A stretch of DNA of 64,000 nucleotides, taken from Bifidobacterium breve. GTDB lineage: Bacteria; Actinomycetota; Thermoleophilia; Miltoncostaeales; Miltoncostaeaceae. Under the pieces are notes generated by a model. That model was given only the letters and a program-made list of their open reading frames with translations, searched no databases and had not been told where the DNA came from. Location: contig CAMAVU010000001.1 of the NCBI GenBank assembly GCA_945861935.1, positions 45,845 to 109,844 of the forward strand, in the 5' to 3' direction. Made by a program: the position numbers and the translations under genes. Of this stretch, positions 15,193 to 64,000 are shown in pieces. Within the stretch, counting starts at the first letter, position 1; each line of letters opens with the position of its first letter.

Positions 15193-15837
15193 TCAGAACA
15201 GCGGGTAGAGCAACGGAGCGAACGCGGACGTCTGGAGGAAGGTGAACAGGGTGGCGAGTAGGCCGAGGACGACCGCGACCACCACGAGGAACCGGTTTCC
15301 GCGCGCGCCGAAGAAGGAAACCGAGCGCATGAGGCGAGATCCGGATACGAACCCCGCGATCGCCGTATGCGTGTGCGGGACCCAGGTCGCGTGCCTCCAA
15401 GCGGTGGCATCGGACCCCCGCACGAGCCACGGCTTCAGCCAAGGGCGCCGTTGCACTTGGTTCGGGCGGTTGATCAACCGGGCCGGAATGAGCGTGAGCA
15501 CGAACATCACGGCGAGAATCAGCACCAGGAATGCGGTGGCGAGCAGGTGGCCAACCATGCGGAACGGGGTCGCGATCACCCGCTCGAAGACGATTGGTGC
15601 GGCGAAGGCCAGGACCCAGATGGTTGGGATGAGCACGATGAAGGCCATGATCCACATCTGTGCCATGAGGGTATGGCGGAAGGCACCTACCGCGAACTGC
15701 AACGTGAGCACGATGGCCAGCGCCTGGACGGCAACGGCCACCCCCGCAAGCGTCTTCGTCTTCCGGATTGCCTCCACCCGCATACGGGTGAGGTGCCATC
15801 GGGATGTGCGAACAGGCGGGTGGTGGGGATCGGGCAT
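15193..15837 (-). CDS. membrane protein: SxtJ-like region fused to a DUF5989 (SxtK)-like C-terminal tail
   Basis: 214 aa, 4-5 TM, directly downstream of the carbamoyltransferase. The last 45 aa (MRSVSFFGARGNRFLVVVAVVLGLLATLFTFLQTSAFAPLLYPLF) resemble the small DUF5989 proteins that end in ...APFIYTLF. Assignment is from memory of family consensus, not a search. Confidence 0.55.
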   Translation of the reverse strand: MPDPHHPPVRTSRWHLTRMRVEAIRKTKTLAGVAVAVQALAIVLTLQFAVGAFRHTLMAQMWIMAFIVLIPTIWVLAFAAPIVFERVIATPFRMVGHLLATAFLVLILAVMFVLTLIPARLINRPNQVQRRPWLKPWLVRGSDATAWRHATWVPHTHTAIAGFVSGSRLMRSVSFFGARGNRFLVVVAVVLGLLATLFTFLQTSAFAPLLYPLF

Positions 15838-15854
15838 CGTCAGGGGTTCATCAC

Positions 15855-17711
15855 CTAGTCGAGGACGTAGTCTGCGAGCGCCATCGCGATTTCGTGGGCG
15901 TCCGGCATCGCAACGGTCTGGTCGGATCTCACGATGAGGGAACCGTCAAGAACGAGGGCGTCGATGTCGGTGAGGAGGAAGCAGCGAACCGCATCGAATG
16001 CCGAGCACACGATCGGTTCTCCGCGGACGTTGAACGACGTGTTTACGAGGACGGAGCATCCGGTGCGAACACGGAAGGCCACAAGCACGTCATGGAGAAA
16101 CGGGTGGTGCGCCGAAGCCACTGTTTGGACCCGTGCGGAGTAGTCGATGTGCGTAACGGCGGGGATCACACTCCGGGTCTCGTTGATGCGCTCGAAGCCG
16201 AGGGGGCCGTCGCGGTCGGCCTCCTTGCCGTCTCCCATCCGTAGTGCCTGCTGGACTGGGAATGTCTTCAGCATGTAGGGCGAGCGGAGGCCCGGCGGCA
16301 TCTCGAAATATGTGCACGCGTCCTCTTCGAGCACGATGGGAGCGAACGGCCGGAAGCTCTCCCGGTACTTCGTCTTGAGGTTGAGTCGTTTCTGCGTATC
16401 GGGATTCCGGGGGTCAGCGAGGATGGACCGGTTACCGAGGGCCCGTGGTCCGAACTCCATTCGCCCACGTGCGATGCCGACGACACTTCCCGATGCCAGC
16501 AGGTCGGCAACGGCGTCGGGCAGCGGGGTGCCGCCGAGATCCCGCGTGATGAGTCCGGCGTCCGCGAGGGCGTTGGCCGAACCGGTGTCCACCTGTCCGG
16601 GCGCTGGACCGAGGAACGCCCCAGCCATCCCGTCCTCGCCGTCCACAGGACGGGGGGATCCGAACTCGTGGTGGTCGACCCAGAGGGCCGCACCGAGAGC
16701 GCCGCCCGCGTCGCCGGCAGCGGGCTGGATCCAGACGCCGGTGAAGGAGTCTGAGCGCTCGAGAGATCCCATTGCGACGACATTCAGCGCGACGCCACCA
16801 GCGAGGCACAGGTTTGATGAGCCCGCTGACGTACATGCTCGTCGGGCGAGTGCAAGCACGGCACGGTTGGTCACCGCCTGAATACTCGCCGCGATGTCGG
16901 CGTGGATCTGCATCAGCGGTGCCTCAGGCGACCGGGGATCGGTTTCAAGGAGGGTTGCGAGGCGATCGGTGTAGGTGTGCAGCCCGTGCAGGTATGCGAA
17001 GTACGCTGGGTTCAGGCTGAATGAACCGTCCGGATCGAGGTGAATGACCTCGTCGAGCAGCGCCCCCTGAAACCGTGGTGCGCCATACGGCGCCAACCCC
17101 ATCAACTTGTACTCCCCCGAATTGACCTTGAACCCGCAGAACATCGTGAGGGCGCTGTACAGGAGGCCCAGCGAGTTGGGGTACTCGATCTCCTCGATGA
17201 GTGTGATGTCCCTGCCCTGCCCGTGGCCGATGGAACATGTGCTCCACTCGCCCACACCGTCGATCGTGAGGATTGCGCTCTCATGAAACGGGCTGGGATA
17301 GAAGGCCGACGCGGCGTGCGAGAGATGGTGTTCACCGAGGTGCACGCGGACCCGGGAACCGAGTGCGTGCTGGATTGCCTTCTCCACGGGAAACTTCTCG
17401 GGCATGAACGCCTTCATGGCGACGACGAAGGCGCGAGCGGCCGACGCGTTGCCCGTCAGGTACGTGGACAACATCCGCTCCAGCTTCAGCATGGGGGAGT
17501 CGTAAAACGCGACGACCGCGAGGTCATCCGGCACGAGACCTTCCTGGCCGAGGACGTACTCCACCGCACGATGGGGGAATCCGGCGTCGCCCTTCTCCCG
17601 GGTGAAACGCTCCTCTTGGGCTGCAGCGAGGATGCGTCCGCCGCAGGTCAGAGCGGCCGCGCTGTCGTGGTAGAACGCCGACACGCCGAGGACGTAGCGC
17701 TCATCTGGCAT
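15855..17711 (-). CDS. NodU/CmcH-family carbamoyltransferase
   Basis: 618 aa with YVLGVSAFYHDSAAAL, EERFTREKGDAGFP and C-terminal VNTSFNVRGEPIVCSAFDAVRCF, all hallmark motifs of the family. Confidence 0.9.
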   Translation of the reverse strand: MPDERYVLGVSAFYHDSAAALTCGGRILAAAQEERFTREKGDAGFPHRAVEYVLGQEGLVPDDLAVVAFYDSPMLKLERMLSTYLTGNASAARAFVVAMKAFMPEKFPVEKAIQHALGSRVRVHLGEHHLSHAASAFYPSPFHESAILTIDGVGEWSTCSIGHGQGRDITLIEEIEYPNSLGLLYSALTMFCGFKVNSGEYKLMGLAPYGAPRFQGALLDEVIHLDPDGSFSLNPAYFAYLHGLHTYTDRLATLLETDPRSPEAPLMQIHADIAASIQAVTNRAVLALARRACTSAGSSNLCLAGGVALNVVAMGSLERSDSFTGVWIQPAAGDAGGALGAALWVDHHEFGSPRPVDGEDGMAGAFLGPAPGQVDTGSANALADAGLITRDLGGTPLPDAVADLLASGSVVGIARGRMEFGPRALGNRSILADPRNPDTQKRLNLKTKYRESFRPFAPIVLEEDACTYFEMPPGLRSPYMLKTFPVQQALRMGDGKEADRDGPLGFERINETRSVIPAVTHIDYSARVQTVASAHHPFLHDVLVAFRVRTGCSVLVNTSFNVRGEPIVCSAFDAVRCFLLTDIDALVLDGSLIVRSDQTVAMPDAHEIAMALADYVLD

Positions 17712-19254
17712 ACGTGGGCCTCAGGGTAATGGCGAACGGGATGAGATCGATCCTCTGGTTGACCGGACATCCTCTGGCCTGAGCAGCGGACCAGACGTAC
17801 ACGCCCGCGACGCGTACGCCCGGTGACATCGTGGGCACGATCGCGGTCCTCCCGGGTGCCACCCGAACCGCCGCGGACATGATCAGGGTCATGTCCGGGG
17901 TATACCCGAACGACGCCACCTCGACCGCCACGGCATCGGGGCCGACCTGGGCGCGGAGCCCCACGACATTCCTGCGCGCGGCATCAACGAGGTCGATCTC
18001 TGAGTGGGGGCGGCCGAGATCGGCACACGGAGCCGTCTGCCCGGGGAGCATGTGACCGGCGATGTTCAGCGTCGTCTCGATGACGGGGCGCCCTGACGGA
18101 TGCGCGGAGATGTCGGCTGCGCCGCCGCCCCGCTCGCTGATCTGCAGGTAGGTCGGAAGGAAGCCAGCCGTCAGCCGTCTCGTGTCCGGCGGGGTTTCGC
18201 CGCCGGCGGGAAGGATCTCCGCGGTCCGTGGGTCGGCGAGCAGGGTGTCGGCGGCATCTTCCGCCAGGCGATGTGCCAGTCGTGGGCTGGGGTGTGCGTT
18301 GACGGGGTTGATCATCAGCACGGATGGGTCTTCGAAGCGGACGAAGGGCGTCGTGCGCGGAATCGGGATGATCGTCGCGCCGCCGCCGCGCAGGATCTCA
18401 AGCGGTCGTCGGGCCAGTTCGAAGTCGCTCGGGCGGATCGGTGTGGGGAGAATGAACAGCGGCATCTGTTGGCCCACGGTCGTGCGCATGCGCGCGGCGG
18501 TCACGCGATACGCCGCCAGTGCATCCTCGGCGAGGATGCGGCGCAGGAAGTGGTAGAAGGGGTAGCCGACGGCGTCCGACGCGTTCGCCTCCCCGTCGGC
18601 GAGGCAGTAATTCGCGGTCATGCTCCGGGTGAGTGCGGGGAGCCACGCGGCTGTCTGGTGCATGAGTGTGGCGAACCACGATCCCTCGCCCTGCATGCAG
18701 GCGAGATACGGCTTGTCCTCCTCGTATTGCTTGATCCCGTAACACCAGTAGCCGAAACATGTGGCGCTGTCCTTGCGGCCCCGTGGCACCGAGTCGTTCG
18801 TCACGTAGCCGAAGACGACGGCATCGGGCCGGAGGCGGCCGAGCACTGCCGGCGTCAGCCAGTCGAGTTGGTTCATGGTCGCCGCCCCGTTGTTGGCAAG
18901 GGCTGTTACCTCGACGCGGCCGGCTCCAAGCCGATCATCCATCACGGTCTGCAGCGCGCGCGGCCACGCCGTTGCGGTATCGGTCGCGCCATCGCCCCAC
19001 ACGAACGAGTCCCCGACGACGAGGATCCGCAGTCGTCGCTCGCTCCCTTCCCCCGGAAGGATGTTCTCCTGCCGATTCACATGTGGATCACCGAGGCGCG
19101 GCGTCAACCGTGCGTAGTTGGAGGCGCTGATGAAACCATCCTCACGTGCCCACATGGCCCGGTCATCGAGAAGCTGGTCCGCACTCAGGGAAACCAGACC
19201 CACGATGGCCCATAGGCCGAGCGACCACATGACGATGATCGCGCGGCGCTTCAT
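17701..19254 (-). CDS. membrane-anchored SGNH/GDSL-family hydrolase or acyl-esterase with extra C-terminal domain
   Basis: An ATG at 19254 gives MKRRAIIVMWSLGLWAIVGLVSL (TM segment), then LRILVVGDSFVWGDG (GDS block I). The roughly 200-aa C-terminal region is unassigned. The stop overlaps the carbamoyltransferase start by 11 nt. Confidence 0.7.
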   Translation of the reverse strand: MKRRAIIVMWSLGLWAIVGLVSLSADQLLDDRAMWAREDGFISASNYARLTPRLGDPHVNRQENILPGEGSERRLRILVVGDSFVWGDGATDTATAWPRALQTVMDDRLGAGRVEVTALANNGAATMNQLDWLTPAVLGRLRPDAVVFGYVTNDSVPRGRKDSATCFGYWCYGIKQYEEDKPYLACMQGEGSWFATLMHQTAAWLPALTRSMTANYCLADGEANASDAVGYPFYHFLRRILAEDALAAYRVTAARMRTTVGQQMPLFILPTPIRPSDFELARRPLEILRGGGATIIPIPRTTPFVRFEDPSVLMINPVNAHPSPRLAHRLAEDAADTLLADPRTAEILPAGGETPPDTRRLTAGFLPTYLQISERGGGAADISAHPSGRPVIETTLNIAGHMLPGQTAPCADLGRPHSEIDLVDAARRNVVGLRAQVGPDAVAVEVASFGYTPDMTLIMSAAVRVAPGRTAIVPTMSPGVRVAGVYVWSAAQARGCPVNQRIDLIPFAITLRPTYAR

Positions 19255-19947
19255 GCCCGGCACCCCGACGTCGGTCCGGGGAGTTCGGAGGCCGGGAGAG
19301 CCTGCAGCCTGGCCAGCGAGGAGGAAGCGGTGGCTGTCCACGGCGGGATCACGGGTCGGATCGAGCGTACCGGCGGTCGCATCTCCGGGCAACCGTTACG
19401 GATCGCCGCGCTGGTCGCTACCGGCGCGGCATGAGTCCCCGGCATCTCGGAGGGTCTGTGCTCCGGGGGGCCGAGTCTGCATCCGGCGAGACGACGAGCC
19501 GTCAGCGTTCCCGCGGGGCATCACCCGGGACAACGGGGCTTCGGGTCCGTGTGCCGCGACGCCGCCTGTCAGCGACCGACCTCGGCTCCCAGGTTCCGGG
19601 AGATCCCCGGCACGACGGAGACATCGTGGCTCGCACCGTGCAGGATGGCGGATCGGGTGCTCGACCATTGCGATGCGGCGCACGGAACGGTCATGCCGCC
19701 CGCGTGGTCATCCGGAGTCGGCACGGGTAGGCCCGACGGATCAGTGCATGGCGGAAGAGATACGGTTCGCCCGGGGTCCGCGATGAGCCCCGGTGTCCGT
19801 GGCGGCCGGGTGCTCTGGCGACGCAGACCGTGCGTTGCACGCCGCCTCTTCCCGTACGCTCCCAAGGTGCGGCGGTCGCCTCAGGACGATTGCGGGAAGG
19901 GTGCGGTCGTCAATAGCGCTTGTTGACGCGGGGGAAGGGGTCGTCAC

Positions 19948-20907
19948 ATGGTCGGTCAATTCAGCGGGTACCTGAGTCCGGTCTTCCCGTCGCAGATCAC
20001 GGTGGACGTCACCGAGTACTGCAACCTGGCCTGCATCCATTGCCCCTACGAGACGGTCACCAAGCTCAAGGGGCGGGCGCGGCAGCATCTGTCCCCGCAG
20101 TGGCATACGAAGTTGATCGACGAGATCGTGAGCGACGGCCAGGGGCATTGCCGCTACGTCCGGTATACCGGGGACGGCGAGCCTCTTGCTCACCCGGGGC
20201 TGGCGGATCTGATCGCCTACGCCCACGACCGGTCCGGGATTCCGATCAACCTCACGACCAACGGGATGCTCCTCACGGAGGATCGGGCGGAAGCACTTCT
20301 GGACGCCGGGGTCGATGTCTTCGACATCAGCATCGATGCCAACACACAGGAGACCTATGCCCGCGTCCGGGTCAAGGGGAAGTTGGACATCACCCGTGCG
20401 AATGTCCTGCGGCTGATTGAAATGGTGCGCGAGCGGCCCGGTAGTGCCCGTGTGATGGTGAGCTTCGTGGAGCAGCCTCTCAACGCCCACGAAGCCGATG
20501 ACTTTCGCAACGACTGGCGGGCTGCCGGTGCTGACTTCGTGGTCGTACGGCGCCCCCATTCATGTGCGGGGTCGATCCCCGCGCAGGCAAAGGTTCTGTG
20601 GGACGCGGCGCCAGCGGAACGCCGTGCCTGTCTCTATCCATGGGAGCGGCTGACCCTGAAGGCCGATGGGTCACTGTCGTACTGCCCCACCGACTGGCGC
20701 CATGAGGCTGAGATCGGTCACATCGCTGCGACCACGGTCCGTGACGTCTGGCAGGGGCCCGGGATGGAGGCTGTACGGCTCGCTCACACGACGGGCGACT
20801 TCTCCGGACACGGGTTCTGCGGAAAGTGTCCGGACTGGTCTGTGGTCCGATGGCCATCAGAGGGTCGTAGCTACGCCTCGGTCATGCACGAGTTCTCTTC
20901 TGACTAG
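19948..20907 (+). CDS. radical SAM protein with SPASM-like C-terminal Cys cluster
   Basis: 319 aa with CNLACIHCPY (CxxxCxxC), GDGEPLAHP and TTNGMLL. C-terminal cysteines occur in CLYPWERLTLKADGSLSYCPTDW...CGKCPDW. GGAAGGGG lies upstream of the ATG. Confidence 0.85.
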   Translation: MVGQFSGYLSPVFPSQITVDVTEYCNLACIHCPYETVTKLKGRARQHLSPQWHTKLIDEIVSDGQGHCRYVRYTGDGEPLAHPGLADLIAYAHDRSGIPINLTTNGMLLTEDRAEALLDAGVDVFDISIDANTQETYARVRVKGKLDITRANVLRLIEMVRERPGSARVMVSFVEQPLNAHEADDFRNDWRAAGADFVVVRRPHSCAGSIPAQAKVLWDAAPAERRACLYPWERLTLKADGSLSYCPTDWRHEAEIGHIAATTVRDVWQGPGMEAVRLAHTTGDFSGHGFCGKCPDWSVVRWPSEGRSYASVMHEFSSD

Positions 20908-20920
20908 TCCCCCAACGGTC

Positions 20921-22069
20921 GTGTCCGGTCCCCACGTGCCGTTTTCACGGCCCTCATCGAGCGAGGAGGAGCACCGCCGCGTTCTGGCGGCGCTGCAGGA
21001 GGGGCATCTGCAGGGAGGTGGGCCATGGACGGATGTGTGCGAGGCGTGGTTGGAATCGTCAACACGCGCGGTGAAGGCGCTGCTGACAACGTCGGGGACA
21101 TCAGCTCTGGAACTGGCCGTCCTCCTGGCTGGCATCGGCCCGGGTGACGAGGTGATCATGCCCTCGTTCACATTTCCGTCAACTGCGAACTGCGTCGTGC
21201 TGCGTGGTGCAACGCCCGTGTTCGTTGACAGTGATGAAGGCACGATGAATATCGACCCGGTGCGCGTCCGCGCCGCTGTCACATCTCGCACCGCAGCCGT
21301 CATCCCCGTGCACTACGCGGGCACAGGGTGCGACATGGACGCCATCTGCGGGATAGCCCGAGATGCCGGCGCCATGGTGATCGAGGATGCAGCCCAAGCG
21401 GTCTGCGCCTCCTGGCAGGGGCGCTCCCTTGGGGCGATCGGCCAGTTGGGGGCCCTGAGCTTCCATGTGTCAAAGAACGTCAGTTGCGGGGAGGGCGGTG
21501 CCCTGTTGATCAACGAGCCCCGCTTGGTGGAAAGGGCTGAGATCCTGTGGGAGAAGGGGACTGATCGCAAGCGGTTCCTGCGCGGGGAGGTCGCGAAGTA
21601 TCGCTGGCGCGACGTCGGCTCATCGTTTCTGCCAAGCGAGGTATTGGCGGCCCTCCTGAGTGCTCAGATGGAGCGCGCGTGGGACATCACCCGGGCACGG
21701 GTGGGCCTATGGGATCGGTACCACGGCTCCCTGGCCCCTCTCGAGGATGCGGGGTTCCTGCGGCGCCCAACCGTTCCGGCCGGATGCCACCACAACGGCC
21801 ATATCTACTTCATCACTCTGCGGAGCACGGCCGTCCGCGAGATGGTCGTTGAGGAGATGCGCCGGGCATCCATCATGGTGCAGACGCATTATGTGCCACT
21901 CCACTCCGCGCCGGCCGGCCGTCGCTTCGGTCGTGCCCACGGGCCGATGGATGTGGTCGACTCCGTGGCACCCCGACTGCTTCGCCTGCCGTTGTTCCCG
22001 GATATGACTCCAGAACAGCACGCGGTTGTTGTCGGCGTCCTGCAGCGGGTGGCGGGGATGGGTGGGTGA
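20921..22069 (+). CDS. DegT/DnrJ/EryC1-family sugar aminotransferase, WecE-like (dTDP-4-amino-4,6-dideoxyhexose transaminase type)
   Basis: The track ORF starts at 20666 inside the radical SAM gene. Homology starts at VPFSRPSSSEEEH (candidate GTG starts at 20921 or 20936). Long colinear similarity to E. coli WecE: FHVSKN (PLP Lys), WEKGTDRKRFLRGEVAKYRWRDVGSSFLPSE, HNGHIYFI, HYVPLHSAPAG, LLRLPLF. Confidence 0.85.
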   Translation: MSGPHVPFSRPSSSEEEHRRVLAALQEGHLQGGGPWTDVCEAWLESSTRAVKALLTTSGTSALELAVLLAGIGPGDEVIMPSFTFPSTANCVVLRGATPVFVDSDEGTMNIDPVRVRAAVTSRTAAVIPVHYAGTGCDMDAICGIARDAGAMVIEDAAQAVCASWQGRSLGAIGQLGALSFHVSKNVSCGEGGALLINEPRLVERAEILWEKGTDRKRFLRGEVAKYRWRDVGSSFLPSEVLAALLSAQMERAWDITRARVGLWDRYHGSLAPLEDAGFLRRPTVPAGCHHNGHIYFITLRSTAVREMVVEEMRRASIMVQTHYVPLHSAPAGRRFGRAHGPMDVVDSVAPRLLRLPLFPDMTPEQHAVVVGVLQRVAGMGG

Positions 22070-47711: not shown

Positions 47712-47817
47712 GGTCTCCCGCTTGTTGGTTCCTCAGCGCGACCGACGCGGGAGCATCCGTGAGTGGACTTGCACGTCCGTCGCCGCCCAACCTCCGGTAA
47801 GGGTAGCGTGCAGACCC

Positions 47818-49736
<1,919 letters not shown>

Positions 49737-55588: not shown

Positions 55589-57675
55589 CCGGCGGGGAGC
55601 GGCGGGAGCGGGTTGAGGATGCGCACGCCGTAGCTCTCGGGCTGTCCCGCGACGGCCTTCCAGTGCTCCTTCGGACGGATGACGATGGGCGTCCAGCGGT
55701 TCGTGGCGGGCACGGGCAGGGTCACCCGCGTTGCCGCTGGCAGGGCCACGGTGCGCAGCACCCCGTCCACGACGCCGATCCGCACCTCGTTCGTGATCGG
55801 AGCCGGGTCGAGGACGACCTGGATGGGCGGCGCTCCCGGACGACGGATCGCCCAGAGATAGGCATCACCTGAGCGGCTCAACTGCCCCTCCACCGACGGC
55901 GAATCCCAGCCGGTGCATGGTTGGACCGCGGTTGTCGCCCCGCTGATCGCATCCGCGGGCATCGAGCCGACGCCGGTGATCCGGGAGGGATCGATGGCCC
56001 ATGCGCGGACGCCGGAATCCGTGCCGATGGGGGTGACGCCGGGCATCCGGTCGAACGCGGTGATCATCGCCGAGGGGTTCCATGCCGACCAGGGGGTTCC
56101 GTAGTACGGCGGGTAGATGAGCACGTTCCGGATGTCGTGGCGGCGGATCGCAGCGACCTGCTGTGCGCCGACGATCCCGCAGTCCAGCGGCCTCAGTGCC
56201 TCCTGGCGGACCACCGCCTCCTTCGGTGTGTACGGCGAATAGCCGTTGGCGCTCCGCCTCGGATCGAAGATGGTCGCGTACATGTACGCGACCCCGGTCG
56301 TGTTCGTGACGTCGAACACTGGTGCGGAGATCACCGCCCCGGCTCGATCACCCAGCAGATGTTGCTGCGCCTGGAGGCCGGACGCCGAGGCCGATTCGAA
56401 CGGCACGAAGGACACGTCCCACGGGGCGATGGCGGCGATCGCGGCGATGCCGAGCGCTGCAGCGACCTTGCGATGTCGCTCCTCACCGATGAGTGCGAGA
56501 CCCCGGTTGACGGCGACCGCCGCGAGGAGAGCGAGCCCGACGCCGGCCAGCGGCAGTGGCCGGGTCACCGAGCGCGCGAACGACAGGACGCCGACGTTGT
56601 CGTGGAGCCAGCCAAACACCGGCGTCGCGGTGCCCATCACGAAGACCGCGAGGACGAGGCCCCAGCCGGCCCAGAACCACACGACCCGGCGTCGCCAGCC
56701 TGCGAGGATCCCCGCGGGGATCGCGAGAAGGCCGAGAATGCCGAGATACGCGAACTTCTCACCCCCCATCGAGGTGTCGCGCAGGAGCACGTTGCGCCCG
56801 GAGGGCGAGTAGATCTGCGCCTCCATGAGGGGTCGCCCGCCCGACCAGAACGAGTCCGAGATGAACCACCAGCGCATCGCGAGCGCGGCGAGAAGGGCGA
56901 GGGCAATCCCTGCGATGACCACCCAGAGTGCACGCTCACGGAAGAGGCGTGTTCCCAGACGCAGGACCGCGTACGAGCCGGTGATGAGGGCCCCGAACAG
57001 GGCGAAGTAGAATTCCCCTGCCTGCACGATGGTGATGAGGGTGATCGCGTAGCCGATCGACCACCAGATGCGCCCCCGGGTCGTACGGGAACGTGCGGCC
57101 CGCTCGATCAGCCACAGGGCTACCGGCACGAGAATCACGAGCCAGGCGACGTAGTGACCGAACAGGCGGTTCACCCGGGCCGGGAAGAACGCCATGACGA
57201 GCCCCCCCGCGATGGCCCCCGCCCGCCCGATTCCCGTCGCGCGCAGCCATAGGTACGTGGCCCCCGCAGCGAGGGGATACGTGAGGACGAGCACGGCGTT
57301 GTAGGCGATGGTCGTGCCGAAGATGAGGAAGATCCCGAAGAGCGGCGCAAAGGGCCACCCCATCTGGTTCGGGATCCCCTCGGTGAGGGCACCGAACGCG
57401 AAGGGGTCCACGTAGGGGTTCGACATGTGGCCGATTTGCCAGAGCCATGTCCACCAGTGGTACAGGGGTTCGAAGGCATCGCCGTAGAAGAAGCCCGGCC
57501 CGCCGGGGTTCCCGCCTGTGATGATTCCCGAGGCGAACCCGCCGACGGCTGGCCCGATACTCCACAGACCCAACCCCAGCACGGCGAGGAACCCTGCGAT
57601 CCCCAGCGTCATCACCCGGACCCGGCGCCCGAGTCGGCTCCAGGTCGTGCGTATCCGGCGCAGCACGCGGGGCAC
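55585..57675 (-). CDS. large polytopic membrane protein with C-terminal extracytoplasmic domain (GT-C-like glycosyltransferase candidate)
   Basis: 696 aa: about 11-12 N-terminal TM segments followed by a roughly 250-aa soluble C-terminal domain. Context: polyprenyl-P-sugar synthase genes downstream in the same operon. I recognise no family motif with certainty. Confidence 0.55.
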   Translation of the reverse strand: MPRVLRRIRTTWSRLGRRVRVMTLGIAGFLAVLGLGLWSIGPAVGGFASGIITGGNPGGPGFFYGDAFEPLYHWWTWLWQIGHMSNPYVDPFAFGALTEGIPNQMGWPFAPLFGIFLIFGTTIAYNAVLVLTYPLAAGATYLWLRATGIGRAGAIAGGLVMAFFPARVNRLFGHYVAWLVILVPVALWLIERAARSRTTRGRIWWSIGYAITLITIVQAGEFYFALFGALITGSYAVLRLGTRLFRERALWVVIAGIALALLAALAMRWWFISDSFWSGGRPLMEAQIYSPSGRNVLLRDTSMGGEKFAYLGILGLLAIPAGILAGWRRRVVWFWAGWGLVLAVFVMGTATPVFGWLHDNVGVLSFARSVTRPLPLAGVGLALLAAVAVNRGLALIGEERHRKVAAALGIAAIAAIAPWDVSFVPFESASASGLQAQQHLLGDRAGAVISAPVFDVTNTTGVAYMYATIFDPRRSANGYSPYTPKEAVVRQEALRPLDCGIVGAQQVAAIRRHDIRNVLIYPPYYGTPWSAWNPSAMITAFDRMPGVTPIGTDSGVRAWAIDPSRITGVGSMPADAISGATTAVQPCTGWDSPSVEGQLSRSGDAYLWAIRRPGAPPIQVVLDPAPITNEVRIGVVDGVLRTVALPAATRVTLPVPATNRWTPIVIRPKEHWKAVAGQPESYGVRILNPLPPLPAG

Positions 57676-57711: not shown

Positions 57712-59118
57712 GTGCGCCCTCCCGAGGCGGTGATCACCATTCTGCGTCGCCCGCTGTCGGTACTGCTGCTCGTGGTCAGCCTAGCGGTGCTGGCGGTCGG
57801 GATCATCCAACTGCAGGAGCAACTTCGCGGCGGCGGAGGGCGGGTGTACGACAACCCGTCGTGCATCCCGGAGACCCTGCCCGCGTGCCAGGGGCGATCC
57901 GATGTCTTTCCACTGCTCGTCGGCGCTCGTCTGGCGTGGCAGCGCGAATCGCCGTATGGCGCTGACCTGACGCGTGAGGTCGGCCGGTTCGCACCGCCCG
58001 ATATCGCCGAGGTGCACGCCTTCTACTACCCGTTGCCCATCGCCGTTCTCGTGACCCCGTTCGCGGCACTCCCCTATGCGTGGGGCGGCACATTGTTCAC
58101 GTGGGTCATGACGTTCGGGTTCGCCGGTCTCCTCGGTGTGACCATGCGGTTCGCATCGGTGGGCCGAATACCCTGGGGCATCGCCCTCGGCGGCTCAGCG
58201 GCTCTCGTTGCCGCGTCGCCCATGTTCCGCGGCGCGGCGTACCTGCAGCAGCCGGCACTGCTCCTCGCGGTACTGCAGGTGGGTCTGTGCCTCGCGATCG
58301 TTCGCGGGACGTGGCGATGGGCCGGGGTACTCGCGGCGCTGGGGCTGGTGAAGCCGCAGTTCGGCTTTCTGCCCGCGCTCGTCGTCCTTCTCATGATCGG
58401 CTGGCACGACCGGACACGACGCGGGCTTCTCGCCTTCGGTGCCACGGTCGGGGCCATGGCCGCCGTCTCATTCATTCTGGTGCCGTCGTGGATCGGCGGC
58501 TTCCGTGAGAGGGTCGACGCCTACGCGGAGGCGGGCCCGCGCCTGTCGGTTCTCGACTGGATGGGCGCGCCGTCCGGACTGGTCGTGGGTGGCGCGGTCA
58601 TCGTGGCCGCGGCACTCCTGGCCGGGGTCCTCAGGCGCCGGTTCGACCCGGCATCTCCCGAGGCGCCGTCCGCGCGAGTGGACCTCGCGGTGCTCGTCGT
58701 CGGGGCGCTGGCTCTCGCGATGCTCGTCATCCCGCGTCTTGATCCGCTCGTCGGCCCCTATGACCACCTGTTCCTTCTCATCCCCGTTGCGCTGCTGACG
58801 GCGCGCGCCCTGATCGGCGGGGCATTGCGAATCACCGTGGGTGTTATCGCGCTTCTTGTGCCGGTATGGGCCATCATCGGGCGCGAATGGCTCGGGTGGC
58901 ACCAGTGGGGAACCGATCTCCTGCTGGGAGTCCAGGAGATCATCGGCTTCGCCCCGCCCCCGGGATTCCACTACGCGACGAACATCACCGACTACTTCCT
59001 CCAGAGCTGGGCGCCGTTCGCCGTGGTGGTGCTCGCCATCGCCTGCGCCGCACCGGGCATCCGTGATTGCGCCCAGTGGCTCCGCGCGCGTGTCGCGGAG
59101 CGCGCGTCGGTAGGGTAA
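57712..59118 (+). CDS. GT87/DUF2029-like membrane glycosyltransferase (polyprenyl-P-mannose-dependent type)
   Basis: 468 aa, polytopic. FYYPLPIAVLVTPFA and LGLVKPQFGFL (the KPQ motif typical of DUF2029/GT87). Only 36 bp separate it from the divergent GT-C-like gene. Confidence 0.65.
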   Translation: MRPPEAVITILRRPLSVLLLVVSLAVLAVGIIQLQEQLRGGGGRVYDNPSCIPETLPACQGRSDVFPLLVGARLAWQRESPYGADLTREVGRFAPPDIAEVHAFYYPLPIAVLVTPFAALPYAWGGTLFTWVMTFGFAGLLGVTMRFASVGRIPWGIALGGSAALVAASPMFRGAAYLQQPALLLAVLQVGLCLAIVRGTWRWAGVLAALGLVKPQFGFLPALVVLLMIGWHDRTRRGLLAFGATVGAMAAVSFILVPSWIGGFRERVDAYAEAGPRLSVLDWMGAPSGLVVGGAVIVAAALLAGVLRRRFDPASPEAPSARVDLAVLVVGALALAMLVIPRLDPLVGPYDHLFLLIPVALLTARALIGGALRITVGVIALLVPVWAIIGREWLGWHQWGTDLLLGVQEIIGFAPPPGFHYATNITDYFLQSWAPFAVVVLAIACAAPGIRDCAQWLRARVAERASVG

Positions 59119-59159: not shown

Positions 59160-59900
59160 TCAGGCGCGTAGTGGCCCTCTCCGCAGGCGCCGGAGGCGCG
59201 GAACGCCCACCGCCGCCTCCAGCACGATGCGCCGAGACATCTTCGACGTGCCCCGCACGCGGTCGGTGAAGATGATCGGCACCTCCACGATCCGGAATCC
59301 CTGGAGCATGGCCCGGTACGTCATCTCGATCTGGAAGACGTATCCGGCGGCATGAACATCGTTGAGTGGGATTGCCTCCAGGACCTCGCGCCGGAAGCAC
59401 TTGAAGCCACCCGTGAGGTCCTCGATGGGGATGCCGAGGATGATGCGGGCGTAGATGCACCCCCCGTGGCTGATCGCGCGCCGGATGATTCCCCAGTTCA
59501 CCGTGCCCCCGCCGGGGACATAGCGCGACCCGAGCGCGAGGTCGGCGTCGGCGGTGGCGCGGATGAGGTCCGGGATCAGCGCCGGATCGTGGGAGAAGTC
59601 GCAGTCCATCTCGACGATGTGCGTGGCGCCCTCGGCCAGCGCCAGACGGAAGCCGTCGCGATATGCGGGGCCGATGCCCTCCTTCCGGGGGCGGTGCAGG
59701 ACGCGTACCCGTGGGTCGACGGCCGCCATTCGGTCTGCGAGGGCCCCGGTGCCGTCGGGTGAGCCGTCATCCATGACGAGGACGGTGAAATCTGTGGCCT
59801 CGTCAGCGAGCGTCGTGAGCACCCGTGTGACCAGCGCCTCGAGATTCTCCCTCTCGTTGTAGGTGGGAACGCACACCCAAACGCGTGGTCGCCCGGTCAT
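59160..59900 (-). CDS. ppm1: polyprenol-phosphate mannose synthase (Ppm1/Dpm1-like GT2)
   Basis: An ATG at 59900 gives MTGRPRVWVCVPTYNERENL. VMDDGSPDGT, EMDCDFSHDP, GSRYVPGG and TGGFKCFRREVLE are hallmark Dpm1/Ppm1 motifs. ATGA overlap with the upstream GT4 stop. Confidence 0.85.
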   Translation of the reverse strand: MTGRPRVWVCVPTYNERENLEALVTRVLTTLADEATDFTVLVMDDGSPDGTGALADRMAAVDPRVRVLHRPRKEGIGPAYRDGFRLALAEGATHIVEMDCDFSHDPALIPDLIRATADADLALGSRYVPGGGTVNWGIIRRAISHGGCIYARIILGIPIEDLTGGFKCFRREVLEAIPLNDVHAAGYVFQIEMTYRAMLQGFRIVEVPIIFTDRVRGTSKMSRRIVLEAAVGVPRLRRLRRGPLRA

Positions 59901-60994
59901 CGCCTCACGGTCTCGATGAGCGCGAGGTACCGCTCCGCGCACCGGTCCCACCCGAAGCGCTCGACGGCTCGTGCACGCGCCCGTTCACCGAGGGCGTCGC
60001 GTCGGTGGGGGTTGGCGATCAGGTCACCGAGAACCTGCGCCAGACCCCCGGGGCCGTCCGCGAGGGGGAAGACGGCGGCCGCGTCGCCGACCACCTCGAG
60101 GTTGGGGGCATGGTCGCTCACGACAAGGGGCGCACCCGCGGCAAGCGCCTCCACGATGACCGGGTGCGTTCCACCGACCTCGGTCGGGGCGCACATCAGT
60201 CCCGCACGGTGCACGAGCTCACGGTATCCATCCCCGAACACGTAGCCGGGGAAGATGACCGACGGCCCGGCCTCTGCCCGCAGGGCCCCGATGTAGGCGG
60301 AGGAATACGGGGCGTCGCCCACGATGACGAGCGGCCACGTCGGCGCGAGGGTCGCGTGTGCGCGCACGAGCAGGTGGGCGTTGTTCTCGGGAACGAGGCG
60401 CCCCACGAACAGGATGAACCGCCCCGGCTCCACCCCGAGGGCCTCGCAGGTCGCCGTGGTCCCCGGGTCGGGCATCGAGGCGCCGTAGGGGATCGCCAGA
60501 AGCCGTCGCCCGAAGCGCTCCTCGTACAGATCGGCCACGCTCTCGGAGTCCGTGATCGCGATGGTCGCACTCGCCGCCGCCATTCGTTCCGTCTGGCGGA
60601 TGAGCCGCCGTGCGAGGCGCGGCCACTTCGCGCGCTCGGAGTCCATCCCGTCGATCTGCAGAATGCTCGGCACCCCGGCCATCCGTGCGAACGGGACGAG
60701 GGGTGCGTTACCCGCGATGAAGTAGATGGCCGCATCCGGTCGCTCGCGCGCCACCAGATGGACGGTGCTCACCGCCGTATGCACGATCGTGTCGAGGTAC
60801 TTGGTGCGGATGGTCGGGAGGTGGACGAGGCGGGCTCCGGCGTGTTCGGCCCGCCGCCCGGTCATGTGGGGCCGGCAGTACACAGTCACCTCGTGACCCC
60901 GGGCCGAGAACTCGAGGGCGAGGTGCTCAACCGCGGTCTCGAACCCCGAGTAGGCCGCGGGGATGCCACGGGTACCGATGAGGGCGATCTTCAC
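59897..60994 (-). CDS. GT4 glycosyltransferase with DUF1972-type N-terminus
   Basis: A GTG at 60994 gives VKIALIGTRGIPAAYSGFETAVEHL (DUF1972 signature IGTRGIPAxYxGFET). FVGRLVPENN and GGTHPVIVEALAAGAPLVVS. The track ORF extension to 61870 overlaps the membrane genes and was rejected. Confidence 0.8.
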   Translation of the reverse strand: MKIALIGTRGIPAAYSGFETAVEHLALEFSARGHEVTVYCRPHMTGRRAEHAGARLVHLPTIRTKYLDTIVHTAVSTVHLVARERPDAAIYFIAGNAPLVPFARMAGVPSILQIDGMDSERAKWPRLARRLIRQTERMAAASATIAITDSESVADLYEERFGRRLLAIPYGASMPDPGTTATCEALGVEPGRFILFVGRLVPENNAHLLVRAHATLAPTWPLVIVGDAPYSSAYIGALRAEAGPSVIFPGYVFGDGYRELVHRAGLMCAPTEVGGTHPVIVEALAAGAPLVVSDHAPNLEVVGDAAAVFPLADGPGGLAQVLGDLIANPHRRDALGERARARAVERFGWDRCAERYLALIETVRR

Positions 60995-61407: not shown

Positions 61408-62169
61408 CTAGGTTCCGGGTCCGGATGCCATGATGCCCGGCTCCCCGAGATGCACGGTGAGCCAGGTCTGCCACAGGGCGAACGCCGTGAGGGCACCCCC
61501 TGCTGCGAGGGCCCGACCCGGTTGGCGGCGGACCGCGTCCAGCACGAGCAGGGCAACGACGATCACTGCGAGCGACTCCCGCCCCAGCATCGCCAAAGCG
61601 AGAGCGGATCCGTATGCCCATGGGGGCGCGTGCTCCCGAAGCCAGAGTGCCCCGGCCAGCGTCGCCAGCGCGACCGGCTCGGTGAGGTCGCGCACCGCCG
61701 CCATCACGAGGCCCGGCAGGAGGCCGACGGCCAGTCCGAACCAGGCTGAGACTCCGGCCCGGATCGCGAACAGCCCGATCACTGCTGAGAGGAGGCCGAG
61801 CGCGATCATGTTGATGATGCCCATGGCCCATGCGGCCGCCACGGGGTTGCCGCCCCCGGATACGGCCCACGTGAGCGCCGGCAGCAGGACGCGTTGTGCC
61901 CGGTAGACCGGGGTGTCCAACGCGGCCTCAGTGGCCGGGTCGATCACCAGGGGATCGCGGGCCAGAGCGAAGTAGAACTGGCCGTCGTATCCGGTATCCG
62001 GGACGCGAACGGCCCCGTCGGGTACCCGGTCCACGGCGGCATTGTCGTGTCCTGCGGCGATCCACGTGGTCGGGTCGAACCCATGACGGGCGGACTGGCC
62101 GAGGAGGATCAGACAGGCCGCGAGGGCCGTCGCCAGGCCGACAAGCCATGGGGAGCGGACAGCGCTCAT
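61408..62169 (-). CDS. polytopic membrane protein, N-terminal portion (ends at an in-frame TAG)
   Basis: 253 aa with DTGYDGQFYFALARDP and several TM segments. ATGA overlap with the upstream GT2 stop. Same reading frame as 61027-61338. Confidence 0.55.
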   Translation of the reverse strand: MSAVRSPWLVGLATALAACLILLGQSARHGFDPTTWIAAGHDNAAVDRVPDGAVRVPDTGYDGQFYFALARDPLVIDPATEAALDTPVYRAQRVLLPALTWAVSGGGNPVAAAWAMGIINMIALGLLSAVIGLFAIRAGVSAWFGLAVGLLPGLVMAAVRDLTEPVALATLAGALWLREHAPPWAYGSALALAMLGRESLAVIVVALLVLDAVRRQPGRALAAGGALTAFALWQTWLTVHLGEPGIMASGPGT

Positions 62170-63029
62170 CGACGGATCCTGCCGACTGCCAGCAGCACCT
62201 CTCCGGTGATCGCCGCCAGGGTGGCGGGGATGAGCCCCCGGACCCCCGGGCGGTGCTTGCGGATGAGCACTGCCATGGTGCGATGCGCCGCCGTGTTGGC
62301 CTGGGGCGTGCGCCGGCCGTCGCGGTTCGATCCTCCGCCCACATGCACCACGTCCACGCCGGGCCAGTAACGGACGACCCAGCCGTGCTCACGGAAGCGC
62401 ATGCAGAGGTCAATGTCCTCGGCGTACATGAAGAACTGCTGGTCGAAGCCGCCCACCTGATGCAGGGCCCGGGATCGCATGAGCATGAAGGCGCCCGACA
62501 CCGCGTCCACATCGGCGGGGCGGTCGTCAGGCAGGTCGCGCAGCACGTAGGCCCGGGCGCTCCGCCACGGCAGCACGCGGTCGAGGCCCGTGATGAAGCA
62601 GAACGCCGACCAGGCCGTGGGGAAGCTCCTGTGGCACCGGGGGTCGAGGCGGCCGTGCGGGTCAACCACGCGCGGCGTGAGCACCCCGATCCGGGGGTCG
62701 GCCCACAGGATGTTGAGGCATGCGCGCAGCGCACCGGACGGGATGACGGTATCCGGGTTCAGGACCAGGACGGCACGGCCGCGCGCACGTGCCATACCCT
62801 GATTGGCGGCACGGGCGAAGCCGGTGTTCGCCGGGCACTCGATCAGGGCGACGCCGGGGTGGTCGCGTGCCACCCCTGGAGTGGCATCACCGCTCGCGTT
62901 GTCCACAACGATCACCTCGAGCGCGATCTCGGCGTGCTGTGTATCGAGGCTGGAGAGGCACGCGGTCAGGTGGTGGGCGCAGCGATACGACACGATCACC
63001 ACGCTGAGTTCGGGTGCGCTCACCCCCAC
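62166..63029 (-). CDS. GT2 glycosyltransferase (WbbL/rhamnosyltransferase-like)
   Basis: LSVVIVSYRCAHHL, VVDNASGD, NTGFARAANQG and YAEDIDLCMR. GTG start at 63029 or 63023. The upstream 30 aa of the track ORF are Arg/His-rich. Confidence 0.8.
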   Translation of the reverse strand: MGVSAPELSVVIVSYRCAHHLTACLSSLDTQHAEIALEVIVVDNASGDATPGVARDHPGVALIECPANTGFARAANQGMARARGRAVLVLNPDTVIPSGALRACLNILWADPRIGVLTPRVVDPHGRLDPRCHRSFPTAWSAFCFITGLDRVLPWRSARAYVLRDLPDDRPADVDAVSGAFMLMRSRALHQVGGFDQQFFMYAEDIDLCMRFREHGWVVRYWPGVDVVHVGGGSNRDGRRTPQANTAAHRTMAVLIRKHRPGVRGLIPATLAAITGEVLLAVGRIRR

Positions 63030-63245
63030 CAGATGAAGGGCAGTCCATCCGCGATGGCTGCGCGCCTGGGCGCCCGCCTGTCGCGCTCGCTGGTGATCGG
63101 GGGGATGGCGGCCCACGCGATGCCGGGGTCCGGGTCGCCGTGCACTGCGGGCTCGATCACGACCACGCCCGGCAGCACGGTGGGGAGCGCTCTCATGGGC
63201 TCATCGTAGGGACGTGGCCCTCGTCGGCAGGCGTCGCCCCCGGGG

Positions 63246-64000
63246 TCACACCCGCGCCCCCGACCGGAGCGCCTCCCAGCCCGCCCGCCCCATTGCGGTG
63301 CCCGTGAATCTGGCCGCCTGCCGCACGCCGGCTTCTCGCAGCCGCTCGCCCTCGCCGGGTTCGAGCGCCGCGCCGATCGCCAGAGCCAGGTCGTTGGGCG
63401 TGGGGTCGCAGGTGATCGCGCCGTCCCCCGCGACCTCGGGCATGGCCCCGCGGTTGCTCGCCACCACGGCGGCCCCGCAGGCCATCGCCTCGAGGATGGG
63501 CAGGCCGAAACCCTCGTACAGCGACGGCACCGCCACCACGGCGGCGGCCCGGTAGAGGTCGGCCAGTTGCCCGTCGTCCACGCGGCCCAGCCAATGGGCG
63601 CGGGCACCGCGCATGATCTCCTCCCCGCCGAGGGCAGACCGACCCACCAGCGCCAGTTCCAGGCCGGCGTCGCCGACAAGGGCCATCGCCCGGGCCAGGG
63701 CACCGATGTTCTTGCGGGGGTGGATGTCGCCCACTGCCAGCACGTAGCGCCTGAGCCCGAAGCGCGCGAACACGCGGTTGGCCGCCTCACCTGTGGCATC
63801 GGGGGTGAACACCGCCGCAGGGGAGGTGCGCACCACGTGCACCTTGGCCGGATCGATCCCGAAGACGTCGGTGATCTCCGCGGCCTCGGTGTGGCTGACG
63901 CCGATCACCACATCGGCTCGCGCGATGGCCCGTGGCACGAGACGCCCGAGCATGAGCCGGTCGCGGCGGCTGAACCACTCGGGGTTGGTGACGAAGGCCG
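63246..64000 (-). CDS. GT4 glycosyltransferase, 3' part; 5' end beyond window
   Basis: C-terminal GT-B half: YVLAVGDIHPRKN and PSLYEGFGLPILEAMACGAAVVAS (EX7E). The frame stays open upstream of the track's Met at 63953 to the window end. Confidence 0.75.
   Translation of the reverse strand, partial: AFVTNPEWFSRRDRLMLGRLVPRAIARADVVIGVSHTEAAEITDVFGIDPAKVHVVRTSPAAVFTPDATGEAANRVFARFGLRRYVLAVGDIHPRKNIGALARAMALVGDAGLELALVGRSALGGEEIMRGARAHWLGRVDDGQLADLYRAAAVVAVPSLYEGFGLPILEAMACGAAVVASNRGAMPEVAGDGAITCDPTPNDLALAIGAALEPGEGERLREAGVRQAARFTGTAMGRAGWEALRSGARV

Follow-up and report, generated by a model that had tools for sequence, protein, structure and literature searches.

How a single bacterial locus comes to hold an ATP-binding cassette (ABC) exporter, a Wzx-like flippase and several membrane glycosyltransferases (GTs) of the GT-C type, and whether such a set builds one polymer or several, is the question raised by a 64,000-nucleotide stretch of DNA (contig CAMAVU010000001.1 of GenBank assembly GCA_945861935.1, positions 45,845 to 109,844), hereafter called the window. 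A first-pass annotation made from the sequence alone had described the DNA from 15.2 kb onwards, as far as the window edge, as a single and very dense envelope-glycan region and had seen in it three normally alternative export or assembly routes. Our analysis makes it reasonably probable that the region serves one exported rhamnose-type polymer, which would depend on the ABC transporter for export and be decorated outside the cell.

In this GC-rich DNA, with its many spurious overlaps, the real open reading frames (ORFs) were picked by third-position GC content and then corrected by stored gene calls. The latter came from ENA ERZ27280223, contig k141_1637027, a metagenome contig of 115.6 kb that contains the window in reverse complement; the same sequence is present in several other assemblies. 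Every ORF between 15.2 and 64 kb was scanned with Pfam and NCBIfam profiles using curated bit cut-offs, and the genes are collected in Table 1. Loci compared with the window are designated by the letter L and a number.

The glycan region and its exporter core

A glycan role was supported by family or fold for 33 of the approximately 37 genes lying between 15.2 kb and the window edge, a density far above chance. The flank from 1 to 15 kb carries nuoA-G, a TPR protein, an ABC-2 permease, a phosphate-binding protein, malic enzyme and a PfkB kinase. As the profile scan of the ORFs of this flank found no glycan-related gene, the left border at about 15.2 kb is real. On the right the cluster runs past the window edge: L084, a contig of the same population, carries three consecutive GT4 genes (one cut by the window edge and two further), ending near 66.5 kb, about 2.5 kb beyond the edge, and followed by a 419-aa protein without known family and a metallophosphoesterase. 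The cluster spans about 51 kb in all. The GC content reaches 70-72% over the first 14 kb and again over the last 4 kb, against 65-68% across 14-50 kb, and no mark of mobile insertion (tRNA, Rfam family, tandem repeat or long repeat) was found in the window. The source organism is an uncultured member of the Thermoleophilia related to Miltoncostaea, and this is most likely its main cell-envelope polysaccharide locus.

The first-pass annotation had taken nearly all genes from 15.2 kb onwards to be glycan-related and had proposed profile searches as a check on its assignments. These searches bore out nearly all of its family calls, and with them the picture of one very dense region. The Wzm/Wzt exporter was recovered by profile, and so were the modification genes, namely the carbamoyltransferase, three methyltransferase domains, the AsnB amidotransferase, the WecE-like aminotransferase and the radical SAM/SPASM enzyme. 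Its GT counts held in part: eight of the nine GT-B domains have profile support but the protein encoded at 23023-24234 has no match at all, and five of the six GT-A domains are supported (four GT2 and one TOD1/MUCI70) but the sixth stands at E 0.16. The epimerase at 27638-28591 was not among the genes that it listed.

The Wzm and Wzt genes are adjacent and co-directional, and the pair is kept in L091, L092 (Miltoncostaea oceani) and L093. The Wzm protein is 73% identical in L091 and 59% in M. oceani, and the homologues of Wzt carry PF14524. A carbohydrate-binding C-terminal domain of Wzt together with a chain-terminating enzyme marks the terminator-coupled subtype of this pathway; here Wzt_C is matched below its cut-off, and candidate methyltransferases are encoded nearby in the cluster. 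Clustered cytoplasmic GTs flank the exporter, with GT4 genes on one side and the 652-aa and 785-aa GTs on the other. GDP-D-rhamnose is the best-supported of the predicted precursors, because Gmd passes its equivalog cut-off and the neighbouring short-chain dehydrogenase/reductase (SDR) finds its best matches in solved Rmd enzymes.

No ORF of the 64 kb matched an initiating sugar-phosphate transferase (Glycos_transf_4 or Bac_transf; WecA/WbaP type), a gene that often lies elsewhere in known systems (PMC11127046). Nor did the window ORFs give any family match to Wzy_C, to an O-antigen polymerase or to a Wzz/chain-length regulator. In the absence of Wzy, of a chain-length regulator and of an initiating phosphoglycosyltransferase (PGT) from the window, there is no evidence for a separate Wzx/Wzy pathway.

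Predicted lipid-linked donors, flippases and GT-C enzymes

The second layer of the locus comprises enzymes of lipid-linked sugar donors together with membrane proteins that would move and use them. The UbiA-family protein (289-321 aa) aligns over its full length with the Mycobacterium tuberculosis DPPR synthase 8j8j and keeps the motif NDxxDxxxD..HPxKxxRPxAxG. By their best NCBIfam matches, three GT2 proteins are putative Dpm1/GtrB-like polyprenyl- or dolichyl-phosphate sugar synthases; the one encoded at 35548-36540 resembles GtrB further in its two C-terminal transmembrane (TM) helices. No GtrA-family flippase was matched among the scanned ORFs, which hold the UPF0104 and the Wzx-like protein instead.

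The GtrB-like GT2 gene is itself flanked by genes for a GMC-type FAD oxidoreductase and a Rossmann SDR-like protein (34655-38036). A DprE1/E2-like epimerisation of a lipid-linked sugar by these two neighbours was considered and not adopted; the neighbourhood is lost beside a 57%-identical GT2 in L006.

The genes for a soluble GT2, the UPF0104 protein and a 696-aa membrane protein form a contiguous, co-directional triad that is contiguous in three genomes. It is kept in relatives whose copy of the 696-aa protein is 73% (L087) and 55% (L088) identical; the GT2 is 81% and 65% identical in these two loci, in each case beside UPF0104. The 696-aa protein matched nothing in Pfam, NCBIfam or the PDB sequences, the latter also when searched with a profile of its family. 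A word index yielded eight relatives, whereas exhaustive searching of 1.84 billion proteins with HMMER gave 344 representatives; a contig scan found no close copy among the GTDB species representatives.

An AlphaFold model of the 696-aa protein was built on the eight sequences and reached a predicted local distance difference test score (pLDDT) of 65, with higher quality in the helical core and the beta-rich domain at the C-terminus. Eight of the nine Foldseek matches to this model with E <=0.001 were named GT-C enzymes, headed by AftD (6w98, E 4.5e-8) and followed by yeast and human STT3 and archaeal AglB, with ArnT, Pmt4 and ALG12 next in rank, just outside this limit. The TM-scores of approximately 0.36 show the fold, not a specific relationship. 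In 43 members of the family a Gly-Asp pair (G65, D66) in the first loop is near-invariant, and this loop is the usual site of the catalytic acid in GT-C enzymes, as described for ORF12 (PMC11127046). On the strength of the fold matches and of this near-invariant pair, we accept the protein as a predicted GT-C enzyme of a family without database model.

The Wzx-like protein has an orthologue in L087 (58% identity) for which PF01943 is on record. Searches of the PDB with phmmer gave no match for this protein or for the GT87 protein, the PimE structure being included for the latter. The conserved position of the Wzx-like gene beside UbiA and RmlC and the absence of Wzy, of a chain-length regulator and of an initiating transferase from the window suggest that its product is best read as a flippase of lipid-phosphate sugars. 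The polyprenyl-phosphate/GT-C layer proposed in the first-pass annotation was found to be real, with UbiA, three Dpm1/GtrB-like GT2 proteins, UPF0104, GT87 and the 696-aa GT-C recognised by profile or fold, and its two clear GT-C-like proteins were confirmed, that at 57712-59118 by the GT87 profile and that at 55585-57675 by its fold.

One polymer or several

Relatives of the locus were sought through its core proteins. The Gmd search returned 80 loci, in which the best matches came from Thermoleophilia and Miltoncostaeales metagenome-assembled genomes (MAGs) and a few Thermoleophilia MAGs alone shared more than Gmd/Rmd; a Wzt search led to four informative contexts, L092, L091, L087 and L088. 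In M. oceani (CP064356; L092, 51-72 kb) nuoA-C, a TPR protein, an ABC-2 permease and malic enzyme are followed by glycan genes, among them Gmd (79% identity), Rmd, Wzt, Wzm, GT4 genes and methyltransferases. This is the chromosomal site and the core of the window, lacking the 15-42 kb block near the exporter. The source organism is therefore a relative of Miltoncostaea, and its locus is an expanded version of a lineage-conserved one; the shared gene order marks a conserved insertion site for envelope-glycan genes.

L091, whose Wzt is 60% identical, has Rmd, two GT4 genes, the small ORF, Wzm and Wzt, and next to these come homologues of the 785-aa GT (full length, 35% identity, adjoining Wzt), of a methyltransferase, of the AsnB-GT4 fusion (kept full length, 55%) and of the 469-aa membrane protein. 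The exporter is therefore accompanied by part of the left block. The more distant L093 carries Wzm/Wzt, a homologue of the 652-aa GT (34%) directly adjoining Wzt, and its own set of GT2, DUF2304 and DUF2142 genes. The right block recurs in L087 in the same order (GT87, GT-C, UPF0104, GT2, Wzx-like, RmlC, UbiA and three GT4), with Gmd and Rmd not located between those genes, and in L088 as GT-C, UPF0104 and GT2 with GT4, GT2 and RmlC homologues. Gmd and Rmd stand beside the core in the window, in M. oceani and in L091.

Judged from these gene orders, the locus appears to be a conserved exporter and GT4 core surrounded by modular, swappable accessory blocks, an organisation that is usual for surface-polysaccharide loci. 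The first-pass annotation had named independent, merely adjacent loci as the outcome that would speak against a single super-locus. The blocks are indeed separable, and relatives carry different subsets of them, but each block that was found adjoins part of the Wzm/Wzt-GT4 core, which argues for a mosaic locus and not for unrelated loci lying side by side.

From the families and folds of the proteins and their co-retention in relatives, we propose the following scheme of substrates, donor/GT-C pairings and a single shared polymer. Gmd and Rmd would supply GDP-D-rhamnose, and other enzymes would supply amino, uronamide and possibly L-rhamnose precursors. The chain would be assembled on a lipid carrier by the cytoplasmic GT4 enzymes and the large multi-domain transferases, after an initiating enzyme encoded elsewhere, may be capped by a methyltransferase, and would leave through Wzm/Wzt. 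Outside the membrane it would be decorated by several three-component systems, each made of a polyprenyl-phosphate sugar synthase, a flippase and a GT-C enzyme. The candidate sets are the GT2 with UPF0104 and the 696-aa GT-C; the Ppm1-like GT2 with GT87; the UbiA phosphoribose synthase with the Wzx-like flippase and a GT-C enzyme that is not assigned; and possibly the GtrB-like GT2 at 35.5 kb with the 469-aa membrane protein. Carbamoyl and methyl groups would be added as well. That only one exporter and neither Wzy, polysaccharide co-polymerase (PCP) nor PGT are encoded in the 64 kb supports one polymer.

Several points weigh against this scheme. The C-terminal domain of Wzt and the Wzx-like protein match their families below the curated cut-offs (23.4 vs 30.4 bits and 19.7 vs 28.2 bits, respectively). 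The phosphatase expected for phosphoribose was not found, no HAD or PAP2 family being matched in any ORF scanned, and UbiA is adjoined not by a DprE1/E2-like or SDR epimerase but by an RmlC-type cupin. Among the metagenome relatives of UbiA (80 loci, 36-49% identity) none shares the RmlC, Wzx or GT-C neighbours. A 30% homologue of the 696-aa GT-C stands alone among housekeeping genes, so this family is not always linked to the triad. Finally, the GC content is lower over 14-50 kb and the exporter of M. oceani has no 15-42 kb block in its vicinity, and part of the region may therefore serve a second product.

That last point would be accounted for by at least two independent glycans made side by side, a conserved D-rhamnan-type polymer leaving through Wzm/Wzt and another polymer, or a glycolipid, that varies between strains and has most of its genes at 15-42 kb. 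This second product might pass through the Wzx-like flippase and have the 469-aa protein as its polymerase. Besides the GC content and the bare core of M. oceani at the same site, the differing subsets of blocks among relatives and the near-orphan status of the 469-aa and 403-aa proteins fit this view, and the AsnB-TviE-like fusion with the TviC-like epimerase would suit a separate uronamide polymer. We nevertheless consider it unlikely: the window holds no initiating transferase, no Wzy family match and no chain-length regulator for such a product, the Wzx-like gene lies 19 kb off, within the conserved right block beside UbiA, and L091 has the 785-aa GT, the AsnB-GT4 fusion and the 469-aa protein encoded alongside Wzm/Wzt. 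It is quite improbable that the GT-C enzymes go beyond single side residues and polymerise whole pentofuranose and mannose domains outside the membrane, as in a mycobacterium-like lipoglycan or an arabinan or riban. The DPPR-synthase motif of UbiA, the GT87 gene adjoining a Ppm1-like GT2 and the arabinofuranosyltransferase AftD as the top structural match of the 696-aa GT-C all point that way, and arabinogalactan synthesis likewise involves an ABC exporter. The AftD match (TM-score 0.36), however, is common to STT3, ArnT and Pmt and reflects the generic GT-C fold, cytoplasmic GT4 and GT2 genes far outnumber those of GT-C enzymes, and DprE1, DprE2, a phosphatase of the Rv3807c type, Emb/Aft sequence homologues, Glf and GlfT were absent from every scan, in agreement with the earlier statement that the gene set is unlike that of the Corynebacteriales.

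Transfer of an exported D-rhamnose glycan onto a surface protein, for example of an S-layer, as in Aneurinibacillus/Geobacillus clusters, is in our view very improbable. The closest solved relative of the Rmd protein is the Rmd of Aneurinibacillus thermoaerophilus, whose gene belongs to an S-layer glycan cluster with Wzm/Wzt, and the fold search linked the 696-aa protein to the oligosaccharyltransferases STT3 and AglB, among others. These matches do not separate the functions of GT-C enzymes, though, and neither an O-antigen-ligase/WsaB-like (Wzy_C) protein nor an S-layer protein gene was detected in the window.

Among the remaining genes of the left block, the 832-aa protein with a TOD1/MUCI70 domain is a possible chain terminator; in L091 the methyltransferase encoded next to Wzt shares 40% identity with its C-terminal domain. 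A motif of approximately 32 residues (...WGDxxxFxxxDGxDCRxNGRxY...) is duplicated within this protein between its two domains, and could be a glycan-end-binding or ruler element of the putative terminator. Correction of the start of the AsnB-GT4 fusion (MCG at 28679) gave 1218 aa in place of the 1414 aa of the ORF, and the fusion suggests that a uronic acid residue is amidated and transferred in a coupled manner. The 469-aa protein, one of the two further GT-C candidates of the first-pass annotation, had one homologue at 34% in a word index of 5.8 billion protein clusters and one at 31% in L091; its AlphaFold model, with a pLDDT of 41.9, was too poor to be of use, and hhalign gave a probability of 2.5% against the 696-aa GT-C family. 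A D-S-G-G-Y motif is conserved just after its first helix. Among these closely packed genes, a 938-bp segment (24235-25172; 72% GC) shows no frame-specific third-position bias, gene call, Rfam match or repeats; it could be the remnant of a gene or an extended regulatory region.

At the right end, the GT4 at 59897-60994 is a possible rhamnosyl adaptor transferase, judging from its family matches. The product of the next gene, the other further GT-C candidate, matches NF046093 just below its cut-off, the 'AZOBR_p60025 family cell surface glycopolymer formation protein', a family name of which we found no mention in the literature. The 253-aa product that ends at its in-frame TAG is identical on four contigs from three or four samples, and the same frame continues downstream for 381 nt with strong coding bias (third-position GC 0.85); the gene could be a pseudogene, two genes or one subject to read-through. 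An hhalign comparison of its protein with the 696-aa GT-C family gave a probability of 1.9%, and tblastn against plasmids no match.

Table 1. Genes of the glycan region within the window, with the evidence for each assignment
Position	Strand	Product	Evidence
15193..15837	-	Small polytopic membrane protein, left edge of cluster	DUF5989 weak, 21 bits; 4-6 TM segments (hydropathy); gene call
15855..17711	-	NodU/CmcH-type O-carbamoyltransferase	Carbam_trans_N 2e-78, Carbam_trans_C 2e-64; exact gene call
17701..19392	-	Membrane-anchored SGNH/GDSL-like hydrolase or acyltransferase (weak)	Lipase_GDSL_2 29.6 bits (below cut-off), Lipase_GDSL 24.6 bits; one N-terminal TM helix
19948..20907	+	Radical SAM/SPASM enzyme	Radical_SAM 1e-19, SPASM 9e-10; no specific NCBIfam equivalog
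20666..22069	+	DegT/WecE-like sugar 4-aminotransferase	DegT_DnrJ_EryC1 5e-85; NF008687 456.6 bits vs 375 cut-off; true start inside ORF
22387..23028	+	WbqC-like protein	PF08889 7e-73
23023..24234	-	403-aa protein of unknown family	Gene call; no match in Pfam, NCBIfam or PDB
25173..27671	-	832-aa protein, TOD1/MUCI70 GT-like N-domain and C-terminal methyltransferase	PF04765 1e-14; Methyltransf_23/11
27638..28591	-	NAD-dependent sugar epimerase, GalE/TviC-like	Gene calls; NCBIfam GalE 152.8 bits, TviC 124 bits, both below cut-offs
28679..32335	+	1218-aa AsnB-type glutamine amidotransferase/TviE-like GT4 fusion	GATase_7, Asn_synthase, Glycos_transf_1; asn_synth_AEB 443 bits, TviE 125.6 bits; exact gene call
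32302..33711	-	469-aa polytopic membrane protein, near-orphan; GT-C or Wzy-like candidate	No family match
33782..34555	-	SAM methyltransferase	Methyltransf_11 5e-9
34655..35482	-	Rossmann NAD(P) epimerase/reductase-like protein	Epimerase 2e-12 on N-terminal part; NCBIfam matches weak
35548..36540	+	GtrB/AglJ-like GT2, lipid-phosphate-sugar synthase type	Glycos_transf_2; AglJ 182 bits; Dol-P-hexose transferase and PpgS also match; TM at residues 253-304
36540..38036	+	GMC-type FAD oxidoreductase	GMC_oxred_C 30.8 bits vs 24.6 cut-off; gene call
38033..39991	+	652-aa GT-B glycosyltransferase	Glyco_trans_1_4 7e-11
39988..42345	+	785-aa two-domain GT, possible GT8-like N-domain and GT4-like C-domain	Glyco_trans_1_4 30.9 bits; GT8 E 0.16
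42384..43733	-	Wzt ABC ATPase with C-terminal extension	ABC_tran 3e-22 (80 bits); Wzt_C 23.4 bits vs 30.4 cut-off
43742..44605	-	Wzm ABC-2 permease	ABC2_membrane 54.9 bits
44547..45047	-	166-aa ORF between GT4 and Wzm	No Pfam match; 35-47% identical ORFs at or near same position in L087, L091, L093
45050..46339	-	GT4	Glycos_transf_1 3e-25; true start probably near 46100; syntenic in L087, L091, M. oceani
46093..47310	-	GT4	Glycos_transf_1 1e-16; syntenic in L003, L087, L091, M. oceani
47710..48771	+	Rmd, SDR beside Gmd	Best PDB matches Rmd 2pk3 E 6e-56 and 6x3b E 5e-48, well above other SDRs
48792..49736	+	Gmd, GDP-mannose 4,6-dehydratase	TIGR01472 421.9 bits vs 415 cut-off; 79% identity to M. 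oceani protein
49846..51078	+	GT4	Glycos_transf_1 1e-29; 72% identity, syntenic in L087
51132..52001	-	UbiA-family polyprenyl-phosphate phosphoribosyltransferase	NF008978 211.7 bits vs 207 cut-off; PDB 8j8j E 1e-33
51998..52546	-	RmlC-type cupin 3,5-epimerase	dTDP_sugar_isom 1e-60; adjoins UbiA in L087 too; present in L088 cluster
52605..53879	+	Wzx-like (MOP superfamily) flippase	Polysacc_synt 19.7 bits vs 28.2 cut-off, near full length; ~12 TM segments
53851..54690	-	Soluble Dpm1/AglJ-like GT2, putative donor synthase of triad	Glycos_transf_2 6e-33; AglJ 113 bits
54530..55588	-	UPF0104/MprF-flippase-like membrane protein	LPG_synthase_TM 1.5e-43; TIGR00374 'flippase-like domain' 75.5 bits vs 43.2 cut-off
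55585..57675	-	696-aa GT-C-fold GT with C-terminal beta-rich domain	Fold match (Foldseek)
57712..59118	+	GT87 (PimE-type) GT-C mannosyltransferase family member	PF09594 52.1 bits vs 25 cut-off; 74% identity, syntenic in L087
59160..59951	-	Soluble Dpm1/Ppm1-like GT2	Glycos_transf_2 6e-29; best NCBIfam Dol-P-hexose transferase, PpgS, AglJ, ArnC, all below cut-offs
59897..60994	-	GT4 with DUF1972 N-domain, Cps2T/WchF-like	DUF1972 and Glycos_transf_1; Cps2T 87.8 bits (below cut-off); 70% identity in L088
61027..62169	-	AZOBR_p60025-family membrane protein	NF046093 148.8 bits vs 150 cut-off; in-frame TAG at 61408-61410
62166..63023	-	GT2	Glycos_transf_2 6e-20; 61% identity in L088
63246..64000	-	GT4, cut by window edge	Glycos_transf_1 8e-23; two more GT4 genes follow to ~66.5 kb (L084)

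Published parallels and meaning for the lineage

The first-pass annotation had seen a co-occurrence of normally alternative routes. This part of its interpretation did not stand: the window lacks Wzy, a chain-length regulator and an initiating transferase, and the combination follows a published logic, with precedents in the O antigens of Citrobacter youngae O1/O2, the group A carbohydrate of streptococci and the arabinogalactan of mycobacteria. Compared with described systems, the exporter, the Wzx-like flippase and the GT-C enzymes would together represent a known layered design and not a clash of routes.

The closest published parallel is the O-antigen system of Citrobacter youngae O1/O2, in which an ABC exporter, Gmd/Rmd and GT4 enzymes are combined with a pentofuranose three-component system: a phosphoribose synthase of the UbiA type, a flippase and a GT-C transferase of family GT136 (Kelly et al. 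2024, PMC11127046). Both loci hold Wzm/Wzt, Gmd with Rmd and GT4 backbone transferases. To these both add a UbiA-type synthase of polyprenyl-phosphate phosphoribose, a flippase (here the candidate Wzx-like protein) and a GT-C protein with a C-terminal beta-rich domain, which in Citrobacter is carbohydrate-binding. They differ in that the UbiA of the window lacks a fused phosphatase domain, its neighbouring flippase candidate is Wzx-like with 12 TM segments against 4 in the Citrobacter prototype, and the epimerase neighbour is an RmlC-type cupin in place of an SDR. Moreover, the GT-C with the beta-rich domain is here operonic with GT2 and UPF0104 and not with UbiA, the host is actinobacterial, and two or three additional donor/GT-C sets are present.

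An ABC exporter, a Wzx-like flippase, a GT2 and a GT-C enzyme in one cluster also make up the scheme published for the group A carbohydrate of streptococci (bioRxiv 10.1101/180810). That system (GacD/E, GacI/J, GacK and GacL) and further clusters for rhamnose-rich polysaccharides of the cell wall (review PMC9574508) likewise have a rhamnan ABC exporter, a GtrB-like GT2 that makes a lipid-phosphate-sugar, a Wzx-family flippase and a decorating GT-C, and the Wzx-like protein of the window mirrors GacK. The pathway here leads to GDP-D-rhamnose, whereas streptococci make L-rhamnose from dTDP with rmlABCD; as far as compared, no sequence relationship links GacL and the GT-C enzymes, and no GacJ-like or GacH-like genes were identified in the window. 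For the triad, the nearest likeness is a predicted archaeal neighbourhood of an AglD-type GT2, UPF0104 and a PMT/STT3-like protein, in which UPF0104 was proposed as flippase (Makarova et al. 2015, PMC5898192); UPF0104 is also the flippase domain of MprF, of the PplT/MprF type (bioRxiv 10.1101/2022.03.11.483950). In both cases a Dpm1-like GT2, UPF0104 and a large GT-C-like membrane protein stand side by side. The archaeal system, however, has been predicted only, and for N-glycosylation of proteins, whereas the present triad is bacterial and lies inside a polysaccharide cluster.

With the synthesis of mycobacterial arabinogalactan and lipoarabinomannan (LAM), which involves the DPPR synthase UbiA, Ppm1, PimE-type GT87, AftD/Emb and the Wzm/Wzt-like Rv3781/Rv3783, the locus shares a DPPR-type UbiA, a Ppm1-like GT2 by a GT87 gene, an ABC exporter and a GT-C with AftD as best fold match. 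In contrast to mycobacteria, its backbone genes are Gmd/Rmd and GT4, and no homologues of DprE1/E2, Rv3807c, Rv3789, Emb/Aft, Glf or GlfT were found; the scans gave no match to the FAD_binding_4/ALO and arabinosyltransferase families, and the link to AftD lies at the level of the fold only. The D-rhamnan cluster of the common polysaccharide antigen of Pseudomonas aeruginosa (rmd-gmd-wbpW-wzm-wzt-wbpXYZ) has a similarly compact core of Gmd, Rmd, Wzm, Wzt and three GT4. To our knowledge, it has no polyprenyl-phosphate/GT-C decoration layer, and its context is that of Gram-negative lipopolysaccharide.

What the window adds is the occurrence of this layered design in an unstudied lineage, with one GT-C family that no database models and one conserved triad; the gain is one of breadth, the design principle being already established. 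We know of nothing published on the cell-envelope chemistry of the Thermoleophilia, for which the locus provides a concrete parts list whose core lies at the same site in the cultured M. oceani. It also provides test cases for extracytoplasmic glycosylation: the GT-C family without database model, the GT2/UPF0104/GT-C triad and a non-mycobacterial enzyme of the DPPR-synthase type paired with a Wzx-like flippase. We put forward only tentatively, as a rather doubtful possibility, that the triad is a distinct, uncharacterised type of three-component glycosylation system, in which a phospholipid-flippase-type protein, and not one of the GtrA, SMR or Wzx type, moves the lipid-linked sugar. If this were true, the triad would form with the UbiA and GT87 sets a multi-donor layer for extracytoplasmic glycan building in a deep-branching actinobacterial class, and this layer could be evolutionarily related to the builder of the mycobacterial cell envelope.

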